Positions 5,513 through 48,555 of a stretch of 64,000 bases of DNA are shown here, piece by piece. Where the stretch lies: the NCBI GenBank assembly GCA_964398525.1, contig CAYNMS010000003.1:547-64546 (forward strand). The letters are read 5' to 3'. The stretch's first letter is position 1. Every line of letters starts with the position of its first letter. The position numbers were made by a program, and so were the translations under genes. Origin of the DNA: an uncultured Pseudomonadales bacterium (GTDB lineage Bacteria; Patescibacteriota; Microgenomatia; UBA1400; CAYNFZ01). The notes below the pieces were generated by a model that saw only the letters and a program-made list of their open reading frames with translations, did no database searches and was not told the origin of the DNA.

Positions 5513-5545
5513 TTAAGCCTCGTTTTATGCGGGGCTTTTTTTTGC
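5513..5545 (+). terminator. rho-independent terminator after the rpsP-KH operon (possibly bidirectional)
   Basis: GCCTCG-TTTTAT-GCGGGGC hairpin followed by TTTTTTTT. Confidence 0.55.
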
Positions 5546-5622
5546 TCAAAACTTCAATCAATAAAACCAATTTTCTAGCCTCGCTCAGTGGGATTCTCCT
5601 CCTAGCCTCGCCTAGCGAGATT

Positions 5623-6438
5623 TCACTCCACCACTTCGTCACCAACTTGCAATTGATTTTCTGGCAAATCCTGAGTTTCAAAAATTAGTAAGGGTAGGGG
5701 AGTAGGGGAGACAAAACCACTTTCACTCTTTTCATACTCTTGAAAAGACTTGAGTTTTTCCACCAATTCCTGATGATCATCTCGAGACAAGGTTTTTGCA
5801 TCAACTTTAGTCAGTTTGATTTCTGGCTCTTGCATCCAATAAGCCAGTAAGTCCATCTCTCCATTAAATTGAACCTGTTCAGCCGCTATTGCTTGACTAC
5901 TTATCCTCACTTCAGCCAAATCTACCAGCGGTACCATGCTACCCAAGCTAGATATAAATTGCTTCATCGCTTCAAATTCGCCTTTAACTTGCAAGGTTAT
6001 CGTCACCATTTCATATGGCAAACTTGTTGCTCGACTTGGTTTTGTCGATTCTCTCAGGCTGGCACTCGCCGTGGCCAAACTTCCAGGTGAAGACGATAAA
6101 TCAGTAATCGAAACTCCAGTTGTCGATGCCAACACGTTTAATGATTCAAGCATAGTAAATATTGGCTTTTCCCTGGGTATAGCCCTCTCCGCAATCTCTC
6201 TCTTATCCGACAATTCTCCCTCACCCAACTGTTCCAATAATGTCACGGCTTGTTCTACTTGTACCAATTCCTCCTTGGTTGTTTCGATCTCGCCTCTTAA
6301 TCTACCAATCGCCGACCAAGAATTTGCCGTCAAAAGTATCACTCCTGTAATCACCAGCACTCCTAATATTAAAAACAAATAATCTCGATACACTAACTGA
6401 ATTTTCCGTGTTACTGTCGAAACACTTTCATCAGCCAT
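5623..6438 (-). CDS. pilO: type IV pilus assembly protein PilO-like
   Basis: N-terminal TM, coiled coil, position after pilN. Confidence 0.55.
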   Translation of the reverse strand: MADESVSTVTRKIQLVYRDYLFLILGVLVITGVILLTANSWSAIGRLRGEIETTKEELVQVEQAVTLLEQLGEGELSDKREIAERAIPREKPIFTMLESLNVLASTTGVSITDLSSSPGSLATASASLRESTKPSRATSLPYEMVTITLQVKGEFEAMKQFISSLGSMVPLVDLAEVRISSQAIAAEQVQFNGEMDLLAYWMQEPEIKLTKVDAKTLSRDDHQELVEKLKSFQEYEKSESGFVSPTPLPLLIFETQDLPENQLQVGDEVVE

Positions 6439-36019: not shown

Positions 36020-36105
36020 GCCGCGGTGGCGGAACAGGCAGACGCGTAGGTCTCAAAAACCTATGGAGCTAACACTCCATGTGAGTTCGATTCTCACCCG
36101 CGGCA
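36020..36105 (+). tRNA. tRNA-Leu (anticodon CAA), type II with long variable arm, no encoded CCA
   Basis: acceptor GCCGCGG/CCGCGGC, T-arm GTGAG-TTCGATT-CTCAC, anticodon stem TAGGT/ACCTA, loop CTCAAAA, variable arm GGAG-CTAACA-CTCC. Confidence 0.85.
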
Positions 36106-36171
36106 CAGCAATGTCTTGGCTTTTTCTTTCTCGCTCTTTACCCCTCAATCTAGTTCTGCCATACTTTCCCT

Positions 36172-38558: not shown

Positions 38559-39023
38559 ATGAAAAAGGAAGTCGTTTTTGCCATACTCATCGGTTTTGGT
38601 ATTGGTCTATTGATTACCTTCGGCATCTACCAAGCCCAACAGGCATACCAAGTCAATAACTCTAATCCGCCCCAAAACCCAGACCAAACTCTAGAACAAG
38701 CTCCGCTTTCTGCCTCAAATCTAGAATTGGAATTAACCTCACCCACCAAAGATAGCGTCCTTGAATCAGCCAGTATCGAACTGGTTGGCAACACGGCTCC
38801 ATTTGCCTATGTTACTGCCGTTTCCACTTCAGATGAAAGTTTTACTCAAGCCGATTCCAATGGTCAATTTTTACTTCCTTTCACTCTAGACCAGGGCGCC
38901 AATCTTATCACTCTCACTTCAGTTTCTTCAGGCGAAACCACTTCACTCGATCGCCTTCTGGTCTTTTCACCCCCCACTCCCCAAGCCACCCCTTCAGCAA
39001 ATAATCAAACCACCGATGACTAA
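38559..39023 (+). CDS. secreted/membrane-anchored hypothetical protein
   Basis: N-terminal TM, Thr/Ser-rich. Confidence 0.45.
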   Translation: MKKEVVFAILIGFGIGLLITFGIYQAQQAYQVNNSNPPQNPDQTLEQAPLSASNLELELTSPTKDSVLESASIELVGNTAPFAYVTAVSTSDESFTQADSNGQFLLPFTLDQGANLITLTSVSSGETTSLDRLLVFSPPTPQATPSANNQTTDD

Positions 39024-39711
39024 TTTTCGCCCTATCATTTTAACCATATTTCTCATCACCCAAGCTTTCCTTGTGCCCTTTGTATTTGCCCAGGATTCAG
39101 CCACCCCCTCTTCAACCCTTGACCAAACCATTAAAGAAAACCTCAAGCAGCGTATCCAACGTGCCATCGCTGGCCAAAACCAAGCTGACCAAAGTGCCTG
39201 GGTTGGCACTATTCAAACCCTCACTTCAGACCTTCTCACAATTACCTCAAGTGACATGCCTCATCTTGTCTCAGTCGATGACACCACCATCTTTCTCCGT
39301 GACACCACCAACATTGACCTGCAAGAATTGGCAATTGGTACCGCTGTCATTGCCATTGGCACCATCGACGACAAAGACATTCTCACTGCCACAAAAATCA
39401 TCGATATTCGTCAGTTGCCTCAAAAAAGCAGCAAACAAACCCTTACTGGCTTCATCAGTGAAATTAACCCCCGAGCCACTGCCCTGACCTTAACCTCCGA
39501 GATCGGTGAAACCTTCGACTTAACTCTTCCCTCAACAGCCAGCATCTCAGCCAACTTCCCCCCTCAACCTCTTCCGGCCCGTGATTTAAACCTAGACGAT
39601 CAAGTTTTGCTCATTTATTCCCAAAGCGACTCTGCCACCCCTGATCTTGAAATCGAACTCATTCACCGTATCAGTGCCTCCGTTGCCTCACCTTCAGCTA
39701 ATGTCCGCTAG
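39016..39711 (+). CDS. secreted hypothetical protein
   Basis: signal peptide ILTIFLITQAFLVPFVFAQ, Thr-rich. Confidence 0.45.
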   Translation: MTNFRPIILTIFLITQAFLVPFVFAQDSATPSSTLDQTIKENLKQRIQRAIAGQNQADQSAWVGTIQTLTSDLLTITSSDMPHLVSVDDTTIFLRDTTNIDLQELAIGTAVIAIGTIDDKDILTATKIIDIRQLPQKSSKQTLTGFISEINPRATALTLTSEIGETFDLTLPSTASISANFPPQPLPARDLNLDDQVLLIYSQSDSATPDLEIELIHRISASVASPSANVR

Positions 39712-40711
39712 CCGTCTCAAACAGCTCAAATCCTTTTTCTCTCCCTCACTTGATGCCTTTTTTCTAAACGACCCCTCTCAAATTCGCTATTACACTTCCC
39801 TCCCCTTTACTCCGATTGCTGGTGACACCTATCTTTTGGTTACCCCTAAAACTTCTCTTCTCTTCCACTCCCCTCTCCTCAATCTTACTCCCCCTTCCCA
39901 CGTTAAGTTAGTCACTCTAACTCTGATAAATATCAAAAAGAACTTGAGTCGGTATTCAAACCTGGGAGTCCACTCCTCCCTACCTTACCACCTATCCAAA
40001 CAACTCCCCTCAACTCTTACCCTAGCCGACAAAATCCTTTCCAAGCCCTTAGTTACAAAATCTTCCCAAGAAATCAAATCCATCCGTCACGCCTGTAAGA
40101 TAACTAAATCTGCCATTTACTGGGCCAAAGAACAACTCATTCACCGGCCAACTGAGGCTGATTTAGCTCAAGCCCTTAAGACAAAACTTTTCTCCCTCGG
40201 CGCCCAAGCATTAGCCTTTGAACCAATTGTGGCTTTTGGCTCTCACACTGCCTCTGCCCACCACCTTTCTTCCGACCGCAAATACCACCCCCACGATCTC
40301 GTTCTGATTGACGCTGGCGCCCAAGTCAATGGCTTTTGTGCCGACATGACCCGCACATTTCTACCCACCTCCCCTACCCCCCATCAACTTCGCCTGTCAC
40401 AAGCCGTAATGTCAGCTTATCAAGCCGCCAGTAAACTTTTGTCCGGCGCCACTGATTTCAGTCAAATCGATTTTAAAGTTAGAAACAGTTTTAAAAAATC
40501 CGGCTTGTCCAAATATTTCATTCACACCAGCGGCCATGGGCTCGGTTTATCTATTCACGAACCTCCTAGCCTATATCACCAAAACCCTTTTCCCATAACT
40601 ACCAACATTGTCTTTACTCTTGAACCAGGTTTATACTATCGCCAAGCCGGCTTTCGTCACGAAGACACCTGGCTAACTACAACCGATAAACCTCAAAACC
40701 TGACTGCATGA
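39701..40711 (+). CDS. M24-family metallopeptidase (Xaa-Pro aminopeptidase-like)
   Basis: HGLGLSIHEPPSLY, pita-bread fold motifs; start moved to ATG at 39701. Confidence 0.8.
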   Translation: MSASRLKQLKSFFSPSLDAFFLNDPSQIRYYTSLPFTPIAGDTYLLVTPKTSLLFHSPLLNLTPPSHVKLVTLTLINIKKNLSRYSNLGVHSSLPYHLSKQLPSTLTLADKILSKPLVTKSSQEIKSIRHACKITKSAIYWAKEQLIHRPTEADLAQALKTKLFSLGAQALAFEPIVAFGSHTASAHHLSSDRKYHPHDLVLIDAGAQVNGFCADMTRTFLPTSPTPHQLRLSQAVMSAYQAASKLLSGATDFSQIDFKVRNSFKKSGLSKYFIHTSGHGLGLSIHEPPSLYHQNPFPITTNIVFTLEPGLYYRQAGFRHEDTWLTTTDKPQNLTA

Positions 40712-41217
40712 CACCAACCCTCCTAGAGCCACACCAACACCAACAACTCAGAAACCTCAGACTCTTAAGTCTGAAATTAGACCCAGACGCTTTCTTATCC
40801 ACTTACGAGTATGAATCCCAGTACCCCGAGCACTATTTTCGTCAAAAAATTTACCAAAGCCTTCAAGCCCCATGCTATGGCTTCTATGGAATTTTTCAGC
40901 CAGACTTAATTGCCACCGCCCAACTTTCTCCCATGTATCTTCAAAAACAAAAGCACTTAGCCAAGATTTACGAACTCTATGTTCATCCCGACTTTCGCCA
41001 TCAGGGACTCGCAAAAAAACTCCTCAACTATCTAATCAAAAAAGCCAGACTCGATCCTCAACTTGAGGCAATCCACCTAAGTGTTGTTTCTACCAACAAA
41101 CCTGCTATTTCCCTTTACACCTCTCTTGGTTTTCAACATCTAGTTACCCTACCCGATGTAATCAAACAAGCAAATAATCAATATGTGGGTAAGGCATATT
41201 ACTATTTACCTCTTTAA
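40708..41217 (+). CDS. GNAT-family N-acetyltransferase
   Basis: VHPDFRHQGLAKKLLNY acetyl-CoA binding motif. Confidence 0.8.
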   Translation: MTPTLLEPHQHQQLRNLRLLSLKLDPDAFLSTYEYESQYPEHYFRQKIYQSLQAPCYGFYGIFQPDLIATAQLSPMYLQKQKHLAKIYELYVHPDFRHQGLAKKLLNYLIKKARLDPQLEAIHLSVVSTNKPAISLYTSLGFQHLVTLPDVIKQANNQYVGKAYYYLPL

Positions 41218-41270
41218 GTCAATGATTATTATCAATTTTATTTTAAGCGATTATGCTAACATAGTTAACT

Positions 41271-41567
41271 ATGCAAAAATTTCCTGACAAAAAAGACCAA
41301 CAACTAATTAAGGCCTTTTCTCTGCTTAAAAACGAGAAAGAAATTCAAAGTTTTCTTCGCGACCTTTTCACTCTCGCCGAACTCAAAGAAGCCTCCAATC
41401 GGTTTCATATCGCCACTCTGCTCTGGCAAGGCGGTATGTCTTACATAGAAATTGCCAAGGAATGCGGTACCTCAACCACCACCGTCACTCGCGTCAACGA
41501 ATGGCTATTCAAACGTGGCGGTAACGGCTATCTTAATGTTCTCAAACGCCTCTATCCCCAAAGCTAA
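41271..41567 (+). CDS. TrpR-like protein, YerC/YecD family
   Basis: 98 aa, IEIAKECGTSTTTVTRVNEW HTH. Confidence 0.55.
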   Translation: MQKFPDKKDQQLIKAFSLLKNEKEIQSFLRDLFTLAELKEASNRFHIATLLWQGGMSYIEIAKECGTSTTTVTRVNEWLFKRGGNGYLNVLKRLYPQS

Positions 41568-41586
41568 ATCAAACTAATCCTAAGCA

Positions 41587-41614
41587 TTGACACGCTGTTA
41601 TTTACTGCTATAAT
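41587..41614 (+). promoter_or_regulatory. near-consensus sigma70 promoter TTGACA-16-TATAAT
   Basis: TTGACA 41587-41592, TATAAT 41609-41614. Confidence 0.5.
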
Positions 41615-41639
41615 CATGCCATCTTACTAACACACTAAA

Positions 41640-41702
41640 ATGTATTTAACCAACATTATTCAGTCAAATCTTCATCACCACCTCCAATCTCGGAGGTTGT
41701 AA
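41640..41702 (+). CDS. candidate leader peptide MYLTNIIQSNLHHHLQSRRL
   Basis: 20-codon ORF with three consecutive His codons (CAT CAC CAC, 41673-41681) overlapping hairpin segment 1. Confidence 0.35.
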   Translation: MYLTNIIQSNLHHHLQSRRL

Positions 41703-41736
41703 TTTTAGCGATTTTTTATTTTTGTTTTGACTTACC

Positions 41737-41768
41737 AACCTCCGACACCTCGGAGGTTTTTTGTGTTT
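41737..41768 (+). terminator. intrinsic terminator / attenuator hairpin
   Basis: AACCTCCGA-CACC-TCGGAGGTT then TTTTGTGTTT; 24 nt before the operon start codon. Confidence 0.6.
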
Positions 41769-41791
41769 ATTTAACAATCACCATACTTAAT

Positions 41792-42556
41792 ATGACTTAT
41801 TCAATTTCTATATTGCGACCAGCTGGAAACGATACTGCTTTAGTTCAAACCAAGCCGGCCAATAAACAATTCAAATCACGTCTAAATCGTTCAATCATGA
41901 GTTTATTTCCTCAGGTTGAACAGGTTGGTTTTTATTACCAAGCTCAAGATAAATACTATTTGGAAATGGCTGGTGATGAATTTTGTGGAAACGCTGCACG
42001 AAGTGCCACTTTTCTTTTTCTCAAAGGAAACCCTGGTTCACTTACTCTCACTTTTCCCAATCTAAATCTCACCCTCAAAACAGGTATTAAAAAACTCAAC
42101 ACCGCTTGGACACAAATACCATTTGACACCTCCCAAGCAATTTATAACCAAAAAGAATATCAAGTTGCCAATATTTATGGTATTAAACAAGTTCTAGTAC
42201 CTCTGACATCACCCAAGCAGGATTTCAAAACCAAAGCCAAAACTATTTTATCCCAACTAAATTTTCTTCAAACACTTCCCGCCTCTGGTGTGATTTTTTA
42301 TCGACTCTCAGTTCAAGCAGCAGAAATAGTTCCCGTCATCTGGGTGCGCGACATTCAAACCTTCTTTGTTGAGACAGCTTGCGCTTCAGGTTCAGCGGCT
42401 TTAGGTCTTATGTTGTCCAATCAAACTCCTACAATTTTTTCCTTTCCAGTAAAACAACCTAGTCAACAGTACCTTTACGTCTCCTGCAAAACCCAAAAGT
42501 CACTTAGTATTGATGGTCCAATCCAATTTATTACTTCTCAATCTTTAACTTTCTAA
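41792..42556 (+). CDS. DapF-fold (diaminopimelate epimerase-like) PLP-independent epimerase/racemase
   Basis: PAGNDTALV (cf. GLGNDF), EFCGNAARS (cf. CGNGARC), ETACASGSAAL (cf. ACGSGACA); both catalytic Cys positions conserved. Confidence 0.55.
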   Translation: MTYSISILRPAGNDTALVQTKPANKQFKSRLNRSIMSLFPQVEQVGFYYQAQDKYYLEMAGDEFCGNAARSATFLFLKGNPGSLTLTFPNLNLTLKTGIKKLNTAWTQIPFDTSQAIYNQKEYQVANIYGIKQVLVPLTSPKQDFKTKAKTILSQLNFLQTLPASGVIFYRLSVQAAEIVPVIWVRDIQTFFVETACASGSAALGLMLSNQTPTIFSFPVKQPSQQYLYVSCKTQKSLSIDGPIQFITSQSLTF

Positions 42557-42558
42557 CT

Positions 42559-44025
42559 ATGTCAGAACGACCTCTTTTTTCCAATACATTTTCCAAATTA
42601 ATGACTGAAAGGGATGTCAATCAGAAACGCCTAGAGGACATTTTTTCTCTGAAACCACCTCAAAGATCATCGTTCAGAGAAATCCGTGAGTTGCTTCCAG
42701 AATTAAGCAACAACCAACTATATAGTTGTTTTTATTCAACTGAAGAGCCAGATAGCCAGAAACTCGCTCAGATCATCAAATCAGAATTACTACCCTGGCT
42801 CCAAACCAATGCTCCTCTTCCAGTCCTTACCCTAAAACAGCTTAGTCGTTTATCCCAATTTTCTCCAGAGTCATTAAAACGACAAATTAGCCAAAATCAA
42901 GTTACTATCGAATTAGAGTCAGAAACCTATCTAGTTGGACTTTCTCAAACTGCTCCAAACACAAATCCTAAGCAGGCAATTAAAAAGGGTCGTTACTTTT
43001 CCCGACCACCAGGCGGAGGACCGGCACAAAAAATCCGGAACTCTTCGCGTCGAATTAAAAATGCCATCAAGAAAATAGCTTTAAACAATACTCCAATCAC
43101 CCTTACACCCCTATCTAGTTTAGATCTTGACAGTAAAATTGCCGATTCAATTGATCCTAATCCTCTCGACTACCTAAGCCGTCAATTGATTGAATCGCTT
43201 AAGATACGTGCAGGAAAAAAATGGCTTTATGATCAAAATTCCTTACCTAACTTCAAGGCAGATTTAGCTGCACTTAGGCGAGATGAACCGGTTGATTTTG
43301 TCCTCTGGAATTGTCTTGAGTTTTCTTGGATAAACAACGGTTACAATCAATACCCCAGTTGTGAGGTTAACTCCGATCTCTCCACAGCAATTTCAGTCTA
43401 TTTTCAACCTCAAATTACTCAATTTGCGCAAAACCTATTAACACTTGGACCGGCTCGGTTCACCATACTTACTCCCAGTAGTGAAGTAACTGATCCCAAA
43501 ATCTGGTCCTACACTCAATCCCTCTCAGACCGACTTAAACTATTATCTAATACCACCAAACAGCTTCAACTTGCTTATAGCTCCATACCCTCATTTCAAG
43601 TTCAAACCTGGAGTCAGTTTCTTGCTAGTCAAGGAGAGTTCACCAATCCGATTGATTTTACTGATTTTGCCCAAACACTCATCACTCAAAGTCCCCAACT
43701 AGAAACACTGAGGCAACAAGCCATCAAAAGTGACCAACAATACTTGAATCAATTCGGTATCAACCTCAAACCTGAAGTACTTCGTCAATCTGCAATTCGT
43801 TATTTCGCGATGTACTACGCAGAAGGTTTAGCTTTTGCCCAGCTCAGAAGACAAGGAAAAAGAATTGTTCTCATTAATTTGGAAGAATATCGAGTACCTC
43901 AACTTACAAATCTTGGCTCGGCTGCCACCCTTCCCATTATTACTCCGGTTAGCTCCGAGGAAATTAATAATTATTATCAGTGGAAAAAACAATATATTCG
44001 TCAAACTAAATACACAAAGGAATAA
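42559..44025 (+). CDS. hypothetical protein, 488 aa, no recognisable motifs
   Basis: tightly coupled: 3-nt gap upstream, TAATG overlap downstream. Confidence 0.5.
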   Translation: MSERPLFSNTFSKLMTERDVNQKRLEDIFSLKPPQRSSFREIRELLPELSNNQLYSCFYSTEEPDSQKLAQIIKSELLPWLQTNAPLPVLTLKQLSRLSQFSPESLKRQISQNQVTIELESETYLVGLSQTAPNTNPKQAIKKGRYFSRPPGGGPAQKIRNSSRRIKNAIKKIALNNTPITLTPLSSLDLDSKIADSIDPNPLDYLSRQLIESLKIRAGKKWLYDQNSLPNFKADLAALRRDEPVDFVLWNCLEFSWINNGYNQYPSCEVNSDLSTAISVYFQPQITQFAQNLLTLGPARFTILTPSSEVTDPKIWSYTQSLSDRLKLLSNTTKQLQLAYSSIPSFQVQTWSQFLASQGEFTNPIDFTDFAQTLITQSPQLETLRQQAIKSDQQYLNQFGINLKPEVLRQSAIRYFAMYYAEGLAFAQLRRQGKRIVLINLEEYRVPQLTNLGSAATLPIITPVSSEEINNYYQWKKQYIRQTKYTKE

Positions 44026-45146
44026 TGCAGAACCTAGATCTGGCTCAAAAACTAATTAGCATTCCCTCCTATGTTGGTCCAAAAACCAACGAATCCATTC
44101 TTGGGGAGTTCATCCTAAACTACATTCGCAAATACACCTCGCTAACCATCATCAAACAACAACCTCTTCCAGGATCAAGCCGCTTCAATTTGATTGTTTC
44201 TGATGGATATCCTCCAAATTTAATTTTTATCAGTCACATGGATACCGTATATCCATCCGGTAACACCCAGTCAATGTTAACCCCCAGGATCAGTCAAGAC
44301 CAACTTCTAGGTCTTGGTGCAGCTGATATGAAAGGGGGTATGGCATCACTCCTTACTGCAGTCAGTAATTTCAACAAAACCCAAGGCCTCACCTTGATTT
44401 TCGACTGTGACGAAGAATCCTATTTTAAGGGGATCAAACAAATTCTCAAATCCTATTGTTTCCAACCTCAATTAGTTGTTTGTCCAGAACCCACCGACGG
44501 TAAAATAATTAATGGCTGCCGTGGTGTTATCGAAATTGAGTTTACTCTTAAAGGCAAGACTGCTCACGCCAGCATGCCTGAAAAAGGCGTCAACTCTATC
44601 ATTCAAAGTGTCCGGCTAGTCAATCGACTCACTCAATTTTTTTCTCAATCCCCTGCATCCGATCTTGGTCAAACGTCAGTCAACCTCGCCTACTTAAACG
44701 GAGGTCTCGTTGTCAATTCTCAGATAATAAATCAACCTAATTGTGTCCCCAATCAGGCCTATTTTACTCTTGACATTCGCCCAGCCAATCCAAAAATCAA
44801 TGCTAATCTTGTGATCGATCAGGCAATTAATCTTGCAAAACCTTTTCAACTTACTGTCTCAAAAGCTCAAATCAAACTCGACTACCCCTCCTACTTTACC
44901 CCTAAATCACAACTGCAAACTCTCGAAACCGTTCAACAACAAGTGCTTGGCAAAGTAAGTTATCAAAAACTTGATCAAGCTGGTTTTTTTGAATCAGCTA
45001 TAGTCAGTCGAAGTTGGAATTGTCCAGCTGTCAATTTTGGTCCTACCGGAACTTTTCATAATCCTAACGAGTATGTCTCTCTTGCTAGCCTCAACCAATG
45101 CCAACAAGTCTATCAACAACTAATTCAAGCCTACTGCACCCCATAA
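44025..45146 (+). CDS. M20-family metallopeptidase/deacylase (ArgE/DapE/PepD-like)
   Basis: ISHMDTVYPSG and LGAADMKGGMASLL motifs. Confidence 0.75.
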   Translation: MQNLDLAQKLISIPSYVGPKTNESILGEFILNYIRKYTSLTIIKQQPLPGSSRFNLIVSDGYPPNLIFISHMDTVYPSGNTQSMLTPRISQDQLLGLGAADMKGGMASLLTAVSNFNKTQGLTLIFDCDEESYFKGIKQILKSYCFQPQLVVCPEPTDGKIINGCRGVIEIEFTLKGKTAHASMPEKGVNSIIQSVRLVNRLTQFFSQSPASDLGQTSVNLAYLNGGLVVNSQIINQPNCVPNQAYFTLDIRPANPKINANLVIDQAINLAKPFQLTVSKAQIKLDYPSYFTPKSQLQTLETVQQQVLGKVSYQKLDQAGFFESAIVSRSWNCPAVNFGPTGTFHNPNEYVSLASLNQCQQVYQQLIQAYCTP

Positions 45147-45200
45147 TGGAGTGTATAGAGATAAAAGAACTAATATCTAACCAATTTTGGAGATGCTAAA

Positions 45201-46454
45201 ATGACACTTATGAATAATAACACCCCCCAAACCCTCAAAGGCTTTCGTGATTTTCTCCCTACCGAAAAAAGAAAACGGGACTTCCTTGCCTCCAAATTAA
45301 CTCAAGTTTTTGCCCTCTACGGCTTCGAACCATTAGAGACACCCACGCTCGAATATGCTTCCCTCCTCTTAGGTAAATACGGCGATGAAGCCGACAAGCT
45401 AGTCTATACATTCACTGATAGAGGAGGGCGTGAAATAGGTTTACGATACGATCAAACCGTACCTACTGCTCGGGTTTTAGCTCAGTATCAGCATCAACTT
45501 CCCAAATATTTTCGCCGCTACCAAATTCAAAACACCTTTAGATCAGAAAAGCCACAGGCCGGTCGTTACCGGGAATTCACTCAATGCGATTTAGACATCT
45601 TTGGCAGCTCGGATCCACTTGCTGACGCCGAGATCTTAGCCGCTGTCTACGCTTCATACAAATCAATCGGCTTTGATCAAATCATTATCAAAATCAACGA
45701 TCGCCAAATTCTTTTTGATGCTCTCTCCCCTTTTTCATCTGCATCTATTTCAGTTTTCTCTCTTATTCAAACTGTAGACAAACTCGACAAGCTTTCCCTC
45801 GAGTCAGTCCAGGCAGAGCTCATTTCCAAGGGTCTTACTTCAGAACAAGCTTCTCAGGCTCTTGATCTCATTACTTCTACCCCAAAACCCAAATCTCTCC
45901 AAGCCATAACCAACAACGCGGTCAGTCTGGGTGTTCCCGACACTTCCCTTCAATTCTCCCCTACTCTCGCTAGAGGCCTTGATTATTACACCGGCTTAAT
46001 CATCGAAGTCCAAATCCCTCAGTTTACTTCCGGCTCAGTTGGTGGAGGAGGCCGATACGATAAACTCATCGAGGATCTCTCTGGAGTCTCCCTTCCCGCT
46101 GTTGGTTTTGCCTTTGGCTTTGATCGAACTCTTGAGGCAGCAGATACTCTCGGACTTATTCCTTCTGCCACCAATACCACTCAAGTCTTAGTCTCAATTT
46201 TTAGTGACCAAACCCTCAGCCAATCCCTCGATATTGCCACCTCGCTTCGTCAAGCTGGCATCTCCACCGAAGTCTACCCTGCTCTCGACAAATTAAGTAA
46301 GCAAGTTAAGCTTGCTAACCAAAAATCTATTCCCTGGGTAGTCATCATTGGTGACACCGAACAAGCCTCAAACCAAATTACCCTCAAAAACATGAACAGT
46401 GGCGACCAGCAAACTCTTTCACTAGACCAAGCCATCCAACTTATTCAGTCTTAA
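45201..46454 (+). CDS. hisS: histidyl-tRNA synthetase
   Basis: GFRDFLP, RRYQIQNTFRSEKPQAGRYREFTQCDLDIFG, GGGRYD motifs. Confidence 0.9.
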   Translation: MTLMNNNTPQTLKGFRDFLPTEKRKRDFLASKLTQVFALYGFEPLETPTLEYASLLLGKYGDEADKLVYTFTDRGGREIGLRYDQTVPTARVLAQYQHQLPKYFRRYQIQNTFRSEKPQAGRYREFTQCDLDIFGSSDPLADAEILAAVYASYKSIGFDQIIIKINDRQILFDALSPFSSASISVFSLIQTVDKLDKLSLESVQAELISKGLTSEQASQALDLITSTPKPKSLQAITNNAVSLGVPDTSLQFSPTLARGLDYYTGLIIEVQIPQFTSGSVGGGGRYDKLIEDLSGVSLPAVGFAFGFDRTLEAADTLGLIPSATNTTQVLVSIFSDQTLSQSLDIATSLRQAGISTEVYPALDKLSKQVKLANQKSIPWVVIIGDTEQASNQITLKNMNSGDQQTLSLDQAIQLIQS

Positions 46455-46500
46455 TTTGGCACCTCTACCAATTTTCACTCTTAACCATTATCCTATTTAA

Positions 46501-47442
46501 GTGAAACCCTCCCGCTCCCTTGCTTATCTGGCTCTTATTCTCAACGCTGCCATTTGGGGTGCCGCTCTACCGATTGTAAAACCCGCACTCGAGTATGTTA
46601 CTCCTTATCAGTATCTTTTCTATCGCTACCTTATCGGCACGATTTTTATCTTTCCCCTTTTTATCTATCTAATCAAACGCCACCCTCTCAAACCTCGTCA
46701 ACTGCTGATTATTATCGCTTTAGAATCCCTCGTCATGGTCATTGGCCATTCTCTACTTTACCTGGGGCTGGATCTAACCACCTCTCTTGAAGCCTCCATT
46801 ATTGGTATTACTTCCCCTGTTTTTATCACTCTAGGTGGATTATTTTTTCTCAAAGAAAAAGAAGAGCGACATGAAGCTGTCGGACTTTTCATCGCTTTAG
46901 CCGGCACTTTAATTGTCACTCTCGAACCGTATTTAAGTTCAAACCGGCTCTCACTAGGTGGCACTCAAGGCAATCTTTTGGTGCTGTCGTATGTCCTTAT
47001 CTGGACCTTTTACAACCTTGTGGCCAAACGCATTTATCCCAAAATCAACAAGCTCCTTATTACTTCTATTGGCCTTTTCTCGTCAACCCTCGCTTTGGGC
47101 TTTTTGGTGTTATTAGACCAACCCTTAAGTCCACTTGCCGCCCTTAATTTTCACACCAACCTTCTTTTCCAACCATCCGTCCTTTTTGCTTCCCTTTACA
47201 TGGGGACCCTCGGCACCATTGCTGCGGTTTCCCTTTATATCTACGGTCTAAGCCACATCGAAGCCTCCGAAGCTTCTCTTTTTTCGTATCTTCAACCCCT
47301 TGTAGCCATACCTTTAGCCGTCGTTTGGCTTTCAGAACCATTTTCTCTACTCTCCTCTGCTGGCTTAATTTTTATAGCTTTTGGCGTCATTATCGCCCAA
47401 ATTCGTACATCTACCCGCAAAAAGAGCCATCGTAAGTACTAA
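46501..47442 (+). CDS. DMT-superfamily (EamA) transporter
   Basis: 10 TM helices, GTG start. Confidence 0.7.
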   Translation: MKPSRSLAYLALILNAAIWGAALPIVKPALEYVTPYQYLFYRYLIGTIFIFPLFIYLIKRHPLKPRQLLIIIALESLVMVIGHSLLYLGLDLTTSLEASIIGITSPVFITLGGLFFLKEKEERHEAVGLFIALAGTLIVTLEPYLSSNRLSLGGTQGNLLVLSYVLIWTFYNLVAKRIYPKINKLLITSIGLFSSTLALGFLVLLDQPLSPLAALNFHTNLLFQPSVLFASLYMGTLGTIAAVSLYIYGLSHIEASEASLFSYLQPLVAIPLAVVWLSEPFSLLSSAGLIFIAFGVIIAQIRTSTRKKSHRKY

Positions 47443-47475
47443 AACTTGCTTCTATCAGCTAGAATATCTATATTC

Positions 47476-48117
47476 ATGCACATTCACCATAAACTTGAGA
47501 AACTTTTCTCCAAATACACTCCCATTAATTGTAAAAAAAACGAAGCCCTTATTGCCGGCAACAACCCCACCGGTGTCTTTTATCTATCTCAAGGATACAT
47601 TCGCCAGTGCTCGGTTTCCCCCTCCGGAGCTGAAACTCTTCTAAATCTCTACAAACCAGGGACCTTTTTCCCCATGACCTGGGCCATTGCCGATATCCCC
47701 AACACCGATTTTTTTGAAACTTTAACTCCCATCAAAGCCTGGAGGGCTCCCAAACATGCTGTTGTAGATTTTCTCAGACAAGAACCAGAGGTGCTTTTTG
47801 ATCTTACCCGTCGTCTATTAATCGGTCTGGACGCCACTCTAGATCGGCTTGAAAGTTTTTACCTTCACGAAGCTGACAAAAAAACTCTTTTGGCCTTGGT
47901 GATTTTGGCAAAGCGATTTTCCAGTAATATTGATTCCAATTCGCCGATTATTGATCTTCCTATCAAACAGGAAGCTCTGGCAACTCTCGCCGGCACCACC
48001 AAAGAAACTTTTAGCCGAGAAATGAGCAAACTTAAAAAAGAAGAACTTATTTCTTACAACCGCGGTCAGATCATCATCCACGATTTTGCCCAACTAAAAA
48101 AAAGACTTTACACTTGA
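47476..48117 (+). CDS. Crp/Fnr-family transcriptional regulator
   Basis: cNMP-binding-like domain then HTH LATLAGTTKETFSREMSKLKKEELI. Confidence 0.7.
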   Translation: MHIHHKLEKLFSKYTPINCKKNEALIAGNNPTGVFYLSQGYIRQCSVSPSGAETLLNLYKPGTFFPMTWAIADIPNTDFFETLTPIKAWRAPKHAVVDFLRQEPEVLFDLTRRLLIGLDATLDRLESFYLHEADKKTLLALVILAKRFSSNIDSNSPIIDLPIKQEALATLAGTTKETFSREMSKLKKEELISYNRGQIIIHDFAQLKKRLYT

Positions 48118-48172
48118 CCTTCCCAAAACCCACTCTTCCTGATAAAATTACCCTTCATTAGAAAGGTTTATT

Positions 48173-48496
48173 ATGAAAAACAATACTCATCCAACTTATT
48201 ACCCCGATGCCCAGGTTGTCTGTTCTTGTGGCCATAAATTTACCACTGGCTCAACCATCAAAGACATCCACGTCGACATTTGCTCGAATTGTCACCCCTT
48301 CTTCACTGGAGAAATGAAATTTGTTGATACTCAAGGCCGAGTTGAGCGTTTTGAATCCATGCGCCAAAAAGCTCAATCTCTCCAACAAACTCGAGGAAAA
48401 AAGAAAAAGAACCAAGCTGTCTCAGATGATTCTGATTCTCCCAAAACCCTCAAGGAAATGCTCGAAGACGTCAAATCCAAAAGCGCCACCCAATAA
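48173..48496 (+). CDS. rpmE: 50S ribosomal protein L31 with Lys/acidic C-terminal extension
   Basis: [18 protein letters not shown]...[10 protein letters not shown]. Confidence 0.85.
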
Positions 48497-48555
48497 CTTT
48501 GCCTGTCACCTTTCGCTTACCTCCTGTGCTCAAACGCATATGTTAAGCTAATTCC

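Follow-up and report, generated by a model that had tools for sequence, protein, structure and literature searches.

A probable histidine leader-peptide attenuator upstream of a CntK-like gene and hisS in an uncultured Patescibacteriota genome

In the genome of an uncultured bacterium (Patescibacteriota; Microgenomatia), a short leader with three histidine codons precedes a DapF-like gene (here called CntK-like), a gene for a 488-aa protein, an M20 peptidase gene and hisS, which raises the question of whether this leader controls the genes behind it and, if so, what it senses. We analyzed a stretch of 64,000 nucleotides that contains this locus (contig CAYNMS010000003.1, positions 547 to 64,546; the whole stretch is called the window), for which an earlier reading made from the letters alone (the sequence-only reading) had proposed a histidine-responsive attenuator. 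We consider it quite likely, judging from sequence and folding, that the locus is a functional ribosome-mediated histidine leader-peptide transcription attenuator which senses charged tRNA-His. The mechanism is classical; what is new is its occurrence in Patescibacteria and in front of this operon. The elements of the leader are the following.

41587-41614, plus strand: sigma-70-type promoter, with TTGACA at 41587-41592, a 16-nt spacer, TATAAT at 41609-41614 and TG at 41606-41607 (extended -10 element, TGcTATAAT)
41640-41702, plus strand: leader open reading frame (ORF) MYLTNIIQSNLHHHLQSRRL, ATG at 41640 and TAA at 41700-41702, 20 codons plus stop
41680-41685, plus strand: segment 1, ACCTCC, which overlaps the last His codon and pairs with GGAGGT at 41692-41697
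41689-41699, plus strand: segment 2, CTCGGAGGTTG, whose partner is either segment 1 or segment 3 and which ends directly before the leader stop codon at 41700-41702
41736-41745, plus strand: segment 3, CAACCTCCGA, which forms the 5' side of the terminator or the 3' side of the antiterminator
41750-41768, plus strand: segment 4, TCGGAGGTT (41750-41758), and the U-tract TTTTGTGTTT, an intrinsic terminator together with segment 3

The promoter, which had been called near-consensus, matched the consensus at 12/12 positions and was the sole such match within the scanned range of 39000-48500. TTGACA promoters were also located upstream of the leaders in other loci of the candidate phyla radiation (CPR). 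Transcription would start near 41621. The 20-codon ORF with its run of CAT CAC CAC, as first read, was confirmed at 41640-41702, with the regulatory codons at 41673-41681, and an in-frame TAA at 41628-41630 excludes a longer leader ORF. When the window was scanned for other leader ORFs with codon runs, none was found in a comparable intergenic setting. The distance from the U-tract to the ATG of the first gene is just 33 nt, so that there is no room for a second promoter and the first gene can be expressed only via read-through.

The RNA segments can pair in alternative ways. A repeat finder detected an exact 10-nt duplication, CTCGGAGGTT, at 41689-41698 and 41749-41758, in agreement with the proposed identity of segments 2 and 4. 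By the same tool, the 1:2 helix has 6 bp (41680-41685 with 41692-41697) and the 2:3 helix has 10 perfect bp between TCGGAGGTTG at 41690-41699 and CAACCTCCGA at 41736-41745. The 3:4 helix has 9 perfect bp, five of them G-C (41737-41745 with 41750-41758), with a CACC loop and is followed by TTTTGTGTTT. Thus the 9 bp first given for 3:4 stood, and the 9 bp given for 2:3 had to be raised to 10. The minimum free energy (MFE) of the leader was -33.8 kcal/mol, compared with -18.8 +/- 3.0 kcal/mol for shuffled sequences (z = -5.0), and 0/200 shuffles were as low. The combination of 1:2 and 3:4 amounted to -23.2 kcal/mol, 2:3 alone as a bare helix to -14.4, 3:4 alone to -13.7 and 1:2 alone to -9.5 kcal/mol. 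With its flanks, the 2:3 duplex reached -17.6 kcal/mol against a shuffle mean of -4.6, a value equaled by 0/300 shuffles.

We then represented the ribosome on the transcript by a 30-nt footprint that blocks positions -15 to +14 relative to the first A-site base and folded the remainder. With the first or second His codon occupied, the full transcript had an MFE structure with an extended 2:3 helix and without the terminator; when the stop codon was occupied, or no ribosome was present, the terminator formed. When the region between the His run and segment 3 was shuffled, this switch was reproduced in 0/40 cases. The 2:3 and 3:4 structures are thus mutually exclusive and the ribosome geometry is correct. 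The stop codon lies just past segment 2, as had been noted, and since it abuts this segment, a terminating ribosome would mask it. Energies, constrained folds and the recurrence in homologous loci described below all support the 1:2, 2:3 and 3:4 layout of a His attenuator that the sequence-only reading had put forward.

The proposed sequence of events is as follows. From the consensus promoter, RNA polymerase would start at about 41621, and the 20-codon leader would be translated by a ribosome. When His-tRNA(His) is scarce, the ribosome would stall with the first or second His codon in the A site, covering segment 1 and leaving segment 2 free; segment 2 (41690-41699) would then form the 10-bp antiterminator with segment 3 (41736-41745), the terminator would be blocked, and the polymerase would read into the genes for the CntK-like racemase, the 488-aa protein, the M20 deacylase, hisS and probably the EamA transporter. 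When His-tRNA(His) is plentiful, the ribosome would reach the stop codon at 41700-41702 and mask segment 2, and if no ribosome is loaded, 1:2 would form instead. Either way, the 3:4 hairpin (9 bp plus the U-tract) would form and give a terminated transcript of about 145 nt. We infer leader translation, transcription-translation coupling, His-dependent read-through and the extent of the operon. Induction on histidine starvation, with a salvage role of the operon under histidine limitation, appears plausible.

For the comparison with other genomes, we used 80 loci encoding a relative of the CntK-like first gene, out of at least 558 loci found (L numbers denote loci, and WIN is the window locus). 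Homologues of the locus proteins shared 32-58% identity and came from metagenome-assembled genomes named Roizman-, Woese-, Gottesman-, Levy- and Shapirobacteria or "Patescibacteria group", which places the window in a Microgenomates-like bacterium of the CPR; a metagenome scan with the single CntK-like protein as query gave no relatives. The same proteins as in the window were also encountered in the Logan runs SRR34646254, SRR34646272 and SRR14117730. ORFs of 6-40 aa starting with ATG were counted within 500 nt upstream of the homologous gene, with reverse complements and shuffles as controls. Short ORFs containing HHH were present on the sense strand of 15/80 upstream regions, an enrichment of about 100-fold over the 0.15 per 80 seen in shuffles; the reverse complement had 2/80, and no other amino acid was enriched. 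Examples of such His leader ORFs are MTFRFTQNHHHEPA (L002), MLINIALYQNNHHHHAISEVI (L009), MLNIVCNSNHHHTN (L018), MSSLSLHHHHNDRE (L026), MDFKLYNFITDILHHHPLVAG (L030), MRISQSNTINIHHHPPSAG (L087) and, from uncultured Clostridia, MNLKIFLNQLHHHRRSL.

A terminator followed the leader in L002, L003, L008, L009, L013, L018, L020, L022, L026, L028 and L030, and was recognized by eye in L035 and L087. The stem sequences were unrelated among loci (CCUCCGA, CCAGCC, CCCCGC, UCUCGCU and CCGCCAA). A segment in or beside the leader stop codon nevertheless paired with the 5' arm of the terminator, and ten loci including WIN had a significant 2:3 duplex when tested against 300 shuffles per locus: the duplex was matched by 0-2/300 shuffles in WIN, L003, L008, L009, L018, L020, L022 and L030, and by 11-12/300 in L002 and L026. 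The MFE switch functioned in WIN, L002, L018, L020, L022, L026 and L028. The choice of CAT or CAC differed among loci and the amino acid was kept. As structure is kept while sequence is replaced, and as the CAT/CAC variation is synonymous, these patterns point to a translated sensor under selection at the RNA level. The comparison of related loci bore out the recurrence of the His run and the pairing logic.

An Asn codon was very often located immediately upstream of the His run in CPR leaders (L002, L003, L008, L009, L016, L018, L022, L071 and L084; QNHHH, TNHH, VNHH, NNHHHH, SNHHH, LNHHH and MNHHH), and the window has SN-L-HHH at 41667-41681. Conserved His leader ORFs were also seen in uncultured Clostridia, upstream of hisS, hisZ-like or CntK-like genes. 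They had the form M..KIFLNQLHHHRRSL in L032, L033, L047, L050 and L076 and M..NINKVHHHF in L052, L055, L061 and L072, with further cases in L056, L065 and L077. A long terminator followed the leader in L047, L050, L056, L076 and L077, and none was detected in the others. The MFE switch test failed on these long Clostridia leaders, and the range covered by the duplex test was too short for their architecture. The Clostridia leader tail ...NQLHHHRRSL resembles the ...SNLHHHLQSRRL of the window.

Several points weigh against the attenuator. We know of no study of transcription-translation coupling in Patescibacteria. The leader ORF has no Shine-Dalgarno (SD) sequence and its 5' untranslated region is about 19 nt long, and a run of three His codons is few. 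With the ribosome on the third His codon, segment 2 was partly masked and the terminator returned, the +14-nt footprint being assumed. The nearest relative, L081 (97% protein identity and 96% leader identity), has the promoter conserved and the attenuator elements intact, and its differences from the window leader are confined to loops and spacers, so that no test of covariation is possible with it. In L003, L008, L009 and L030, the terminator was kept in every state and the MFE switch failed; a switch in these four loci would have to be kinetic, and the duplex test still supports 2:3 there. In addition, hisS may have an internal promoter.

The missing SD sequence and the short His run had already been named as limits of the proposal. 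Both facts stand. An SD-like motif was present in only 26/63 long ORFs of the window, so its absence from the leader is no objection; the CntK-like gene also lacks one. Several ATG codons in the window lie 5-12 nt downstream of a TATAAT-like box (for example, at 72, 17117, 34967 and 60945), and CPR leaders elsewhere begin 6-10 nt past the -10 box. The sequence suggests that leaderless or SD-independent initiation is frequent in this genome. Published predicted His attenuators have 3-5 His codons, which places three at the low end of this range (PMC9413887).

Among known systems, the proposed mechanism is shared with hisL of Escherichia coli and Salmonella (RF00514), which likewise has a short ORF with His codons, 1:2, 2:3 and 3:4 hairpins and a terminator before the first structural gene, and which senses charged tRNA-His via the position of the ribosome. 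Unlike the three codons of the window, hisL has seven consecutive His codons; it belongs to another phylum, and the genes under its control are those of histidine biosynthesis instead of hisS or a racemase gene. There is no similarity in sequence or covariance model between the two: RF00514 gave nothing at its gathering score in the window and nothing at E <= 10 within 41500-41900, the range of the leader E-value scan, and the Rfam gathering and E-value scans of the window returned only a tRNA-Leu and chance-level OmrA-B (24 bits) and Phe_leader (17 bits) matches. The pheM-pheST leader of E. coli, a near precedent by its logic, is an established case in which leader-peptide attenuation controls an aminoacyl-tRNA synthetase operon via cognate codons, as is proposed for the window; it differs in using Phe codons, in its group of organisms and in having no associated amino-acid-metabolizing genes.

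The nearest precedents are the His attenuators predicted in Firmicutes, namely in the B. cereus group, Peptostreptococcaceae and Erysipelotrichales (PMC9413887), and the leaders of hisZ and of a hisS paralogue predicted in bacilli (PMC2965389). These are comparative predictions only, with 3-5 His codons in a short ORF directly upstream of attenuator or terminator hairpins; in some lineages they stand in for control by T-box or HisR, and one case precedes a hisS-family gene, as in the window. They mostly precede his biosynthesis operons, and no CntK-like racemase, tRNA-His or CPR genome is among them. The Firmicutes attenuators are found in genomes without HisR (PMC9413887), whereas the window has a HisR-like gene beside the leader. 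Because His leaders before hisS-family genes had been predicted in bacilli (PMC2965389), the kind of element is not new, only the lineage and the operon. The sequence-only reading had supposed that no such attenuator was known from this lineage, and our search of the literature for Patescibacteria combined with attenuation and leader peptide indeed found no papers; a search for T-box combined with Candidate Phyla Radiation found none either.

In other CPR loci, the position of the leader ORF is occupied by a T-box-like leader (5619-5819 in L001, 5639-5829 in L007, ~4760-5040 in L017, ~5670-5950 in L019 and ~3720-4000 in L086). Their elements are AGGAUGGGACCGCGGGA, a terminator and a first stem, CUGGA-GUCACGA-UCCAG, which is very short and carries the His codon CAC in its 7-nt loop GUCACGA, a putative specifier loop. 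The Rfam T-box scores were 35.9 and 30.7 bits (E = 1.5e-6 and 2.9e-5), which is below the gathering score of 93. In the window itself, the T-box motif AGGGUGGNACCGCG was absent by regular expression and there was no Rfam T-box match. T-box leaders with a His specifier (RF00230) share the regulatory logic and the regulated gene, hisS, with the window, and differ in that the sensor is tRNA binding in the T-box and would be the ribosome in the window. Naville and Gautheret observed in bacilli that T-box and His leader peptide replace each other upstream of hisS-family genes (PMC2965389). As the same exchange is seen in the CPR loci, the signal sensed would be the charging of tRNA-His.

A tRNA-His (GTG) gene was itself the first gene past the leader terminator in L026 (5733-5944) and L035 (5910-5728, minus strand), and the first past the T-box-like terminator in L001 (5619-5935) and L007 (5639-5957). 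In these four loci, tRNA-His is seemingly expressed by read-through only, since it starts 0-13 nt past the U-tract and leaves no room for a promoter. It also followed the leader, more loosely, in L018, L020, L022 and L053; in L018 and L020, TGATATAAT lies between the terminator and tRNA-His, so that it may have its own promoter. We know of no described case of an attenuator that precedes a tRNA gene.

In six loci, five of them distinct, the His run formed an in-frame C-terminal extension of a TrpR-like (HisR-like) gene.

L084, 143-500 (also L085): fused His run
L071, ~5517-5900: fused His run
L005, 2660-3077: fused His run
L006, ~5790-5870: fused His run
L015, 5426-5830: fused His run

The fused tails end in ...GRLNHHHLAKAG, ...KRLKDMNHHHSPLVAE, ...NGYNLIIGRLNHHHLAKAG and ...KINSLHHHRR, each followed by the stop codon. 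Directly past the fused His run, L005, L015, L071 and L084 have terminator-type hairpins and then a CntK-like gene. In these loci, the regulator ORF, at its full length, seems to serve as the leader peptide as well; we could find no description of such a fused regulator-leader.

These variants bear on the alternative that a terminator/antiterminator switch is real and is set without a translating ribosome, the ORF being incidental. The effector would be an RNA-binding protein, uncharged tRNA-His binding to CAU-CAC-CAC, or a TrpR-family protein. The leader without an SD sequence, the T-box-like element, which binds tRNA, at this position in sister loci and the TrpR-family gene that is always nearby would all suit such a switch. 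However, diverged loci keep the His codons in frame with an ATG and have a stop codon 1-14 codons on, and wherever the 2:3 duplex is significant (ten loci), this stop lies in or beside segment 2, with a distance of 21 nt in L008. The synonymous CAT/CAC variation indicates selection on the meaning of the codons, and in the six fused loci the His run, being at the C-terminus of a real protein gene, must be translated. The window lacks a T-box motif and any match to an Rfam family for its leader, and TrpR-family proteins bind DNA (PMC9413887). We therefore regard a ribosome-free switch as unlikely and retain the leader-peptide attenuator.

The gene directly upstream of the leader promoter raises a second alternative.

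41271-41567, plus strand: TrpR-family regulator gene of the YerC/YecD type, HisR-like (Pfam Trp_repressor, E = 5.5e-19)

The regulator passed the NCBIfam model YerC/YecD TIGR02531 with 56.8 bits against a cutoff of 42.2, and in many CPR loci the neighbor of the CntK-like gene is a TrpR-like gene. In B. subtilis, YerC acts as the histidine repressor HisR (PMC9413887), and in HisR (YerC) regulons, as in the CPR loci, a YerC-type gene is found beside histidine genes (PMC9413887). Several CPR loci have a palindrome, ~TATTAAC-N2-GTTAATA, between the -10 box and the leader ATG (L003, ~5880-5896; L042, two copies at ~5715-5770; L044, ~5725-5745; also L016, L008 and L087), which is a candidate operator for the adjacent TrpR-like protein. 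When the window was scanned with this palindrome, TATTAACNNGTTAATA, there were chance-level matches and none near the leader (41580-41640); a position weight matrix (PWM) built from six CPR sites reached at most 6.5 at the leader promoter, whereas the model sites reach 20-26. Read by eye, the leader promoter showed none of the HisR motifs published for Firmicutes and Proteobacteria. The TrpR-like gene is preceded by a weak palindrome candidate, CTAACATAGTTAAC, at 41256-41269, and the leader ATG by TTACTAACAC at 41624-41641, which resembles a half-site. The direct repeat TTTTA(A)GCGATT occurs at 41240-41252, upstream of the TrpR-like gene, and at 41703-41713, in the loop between segments 2 and 3; we dropped it as an operator because the second copy is altered in L081, and it is probably due to chance.

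It could thus be argued that the main control is repression at the DNA level by the HisR-like protein at the leader promoter, as HisR represses his genes in Firmicutes (PMC9413887), and that the leader is minor or vestigial. The adjacent gene and the CPR palindromes speak for such repression. At the window leader promoter, in contrast to the DNA-level control of HisR regulons, no operator was found, by palindrome, by eye or by PWM, and the attenuator elements are intact and conserved in L081, which makes it very improbable that repression is the main control. The two layers are also compatible with each other. In the E. coli trp operon, both repression and attenuation are used.

A further alternative is that there is no regulation at all, with hairpins that act as common terminators to insulate the TrpR-like gene from the downstream operon and with a promoter match and short ORF due to chance. 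It could draw on the frequency of promoter- and terminator-like matches in AT-rich DNA (17 promoter-like sites versus 15 expected) and on the terminator-like score of hairpin 1:2 itself. This alternative is hardly credible, as the 12/12 extended -10 promoter stands upstream of the terminator and not downstream of it, the first gene can be reached by read-through only, the alternative pairing stems from an exact 10-nt duplication that outdid 300/300 shuffles, and ORFs with HHH are about 100-fold enriched in homologous upstream regions.

We next consider what the probable attenuator would control. In the window, the gene order by Pfam and NCBIfam is M24 peptidase, GNAT acetyltransferase, TrpR-family regulator, leader, "DapF-like" gene, 488-aa gene, M20 gene, hisS, EamA and a Crp-family regulator. 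The genes past the leader are the following.

41792-42556, plus strand: first gene, putative histidine racemase of the CntK/HisR family with a DapF fold (PF26317 CntK_N, precomputed Pfam)
42559-44025, plus strand: second gene, uncharacterized 488-aa protein, starting 2 nt past the previous stop
44025-45146, plus strand: third gene, M20 metallohydrolase of the ArgE/DapE type (Pfam M20 and M20_dimer), with a 1-nt overlap with the previous stop
45201-46454, plus strand: hisS, histidyl-tRNA synthetase (Pfam tRNA-synt_His and HGTP_anticodon), 54 nt past the M20 gene
46501-47442, plus strand: EamA-family transporter gene (Pfam EamA), 46 nt past hisS

The spacing of 2 nt and the 1-nt overlap agree with the three close-set genes first described, and the 54-nt spacer before hisS held no terminator-like site, as had been read, and no promoter-like site. 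We infer that hisS lies in the same transcription unit as the CntK-like gene, and the EamA gene probably shares this unit with hisS. EamA followed hisS in L001, L002, L003, L007, L013, L019, L024, L028, L040, L042, L044, L053 and L086, and the order TrpR-like, CntK-like, (488-aa family), further genes, hisS and EamA was repeated in many CPR loci.

The "DapF-like" label held for the fold, and the protein is more precisely a relative of histidine racemases of the CntK/HisR type, which makes the link to histidine firmer. In a PDB sequence search, its top matches were 'diaminopimelate epimerase' chains 6l4l/6jis (E ~1e-10), which we presume may be CntK, and it matched the histidine racemase 9cr6/9cr1 with E = 3.8e-9 over residues 8-249. 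In NCBIfam, it scored 69 bits with CntK and 61 bits with the Fusobacterium HisR, far below the equivalog cutoffs of 300 and 400. C65 and C197, candidates for the catalytic cysteine pair, were invariant in the alignment. The experimentally characterized members of this family are the histidine racemases CntK and Fusobacterium HisR (PMC11602996).

The family of the 488-aa protein is small, with 67 representatives. Word-indexed searching for homologues recovered no sequence other than the query, and neither Pfam nor a sequence search of the PDB gave a match; its AF2 model was confident, with a pLDDT (predicted local distance difference test) of 89.7. The third protein had the DapE-ArgE subfamily as its top NCBIfam match, below the cutoff. 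Its membership in M20 was upheld, while the argument that M20 peptidases include Xaa-His dipeptidases is weakened by the ArgE/DapE type, PepD-type models having been outside the comparison.

Two loci show further neighbors. In L084 (1322-3839) and L087 (3000-7976), genes of the CntK-like and ~500-aa families are followed by beta-lactamase-family (PF00144) and M15 peptidase genes, and L087 has a D-Tyr-tRNA deacylase gene upstream. As a lead, this D-amino-acid and peptide theme fits a racemase-based pathway. A tRNA-Leu(CAA) gene was located ~4-6 kb upstream of the CntK-like gene on either strand, at 36020-36106 in the window and also in L001, L003, L018, L020, L026, L028, L042, L044 and L053, a long-range synteny across deeply diverged genomes.

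The histidine links of the regulated genes are hisS, the racemase of the CntK/HisR family, tRNA-His in relatives and the adjacent HisR-like repressor. Tentatively, and without counting on it, we suggest that Patescibacteria may possess a conserved 'His-tRNA charging' regulon with three interchangeable sensors at one position, namely a free His leader peptide, a His run fused to the C-terminus of a HisR-like protein and a minimal T-box with CAC in a 7-nt loop, with tRNA-His itself as the first regulated gene in several loci. Under the same tentative reading, its members might be tRNA-His, HisRS, a CntK-type racemase, the 488-aa enzyme, peptidases of the D-amino-acid type and the EamA transporter; the 488-aa enzyme may have a fold like that of class I aminoacyl-tRNA synthetases or cyclodipeptide synthases. 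If this regulon exists, the pathway would salvage D-His or His peptides, or would use His-tRNA as a substrate.

The attenuator, if functional, extends classical leader-peptide attenuation to the candidate phyla radiation and implies that, in these uncultivated bacteria with reduced genomes, the coupling of transcription with translation is close enough for RNA polymerase to be steered by a ribosome. It would also provide independent genomic evidence that the widespread CntK-like "DapF" family, the 488-aa protein and the peptidases belong to the physiology of histidine and tRNA-His, and thereby an annotation lead for genes currently without a function. The related loci would constitute a natural experiment in which three sensors of one signal are swapped before one operon.

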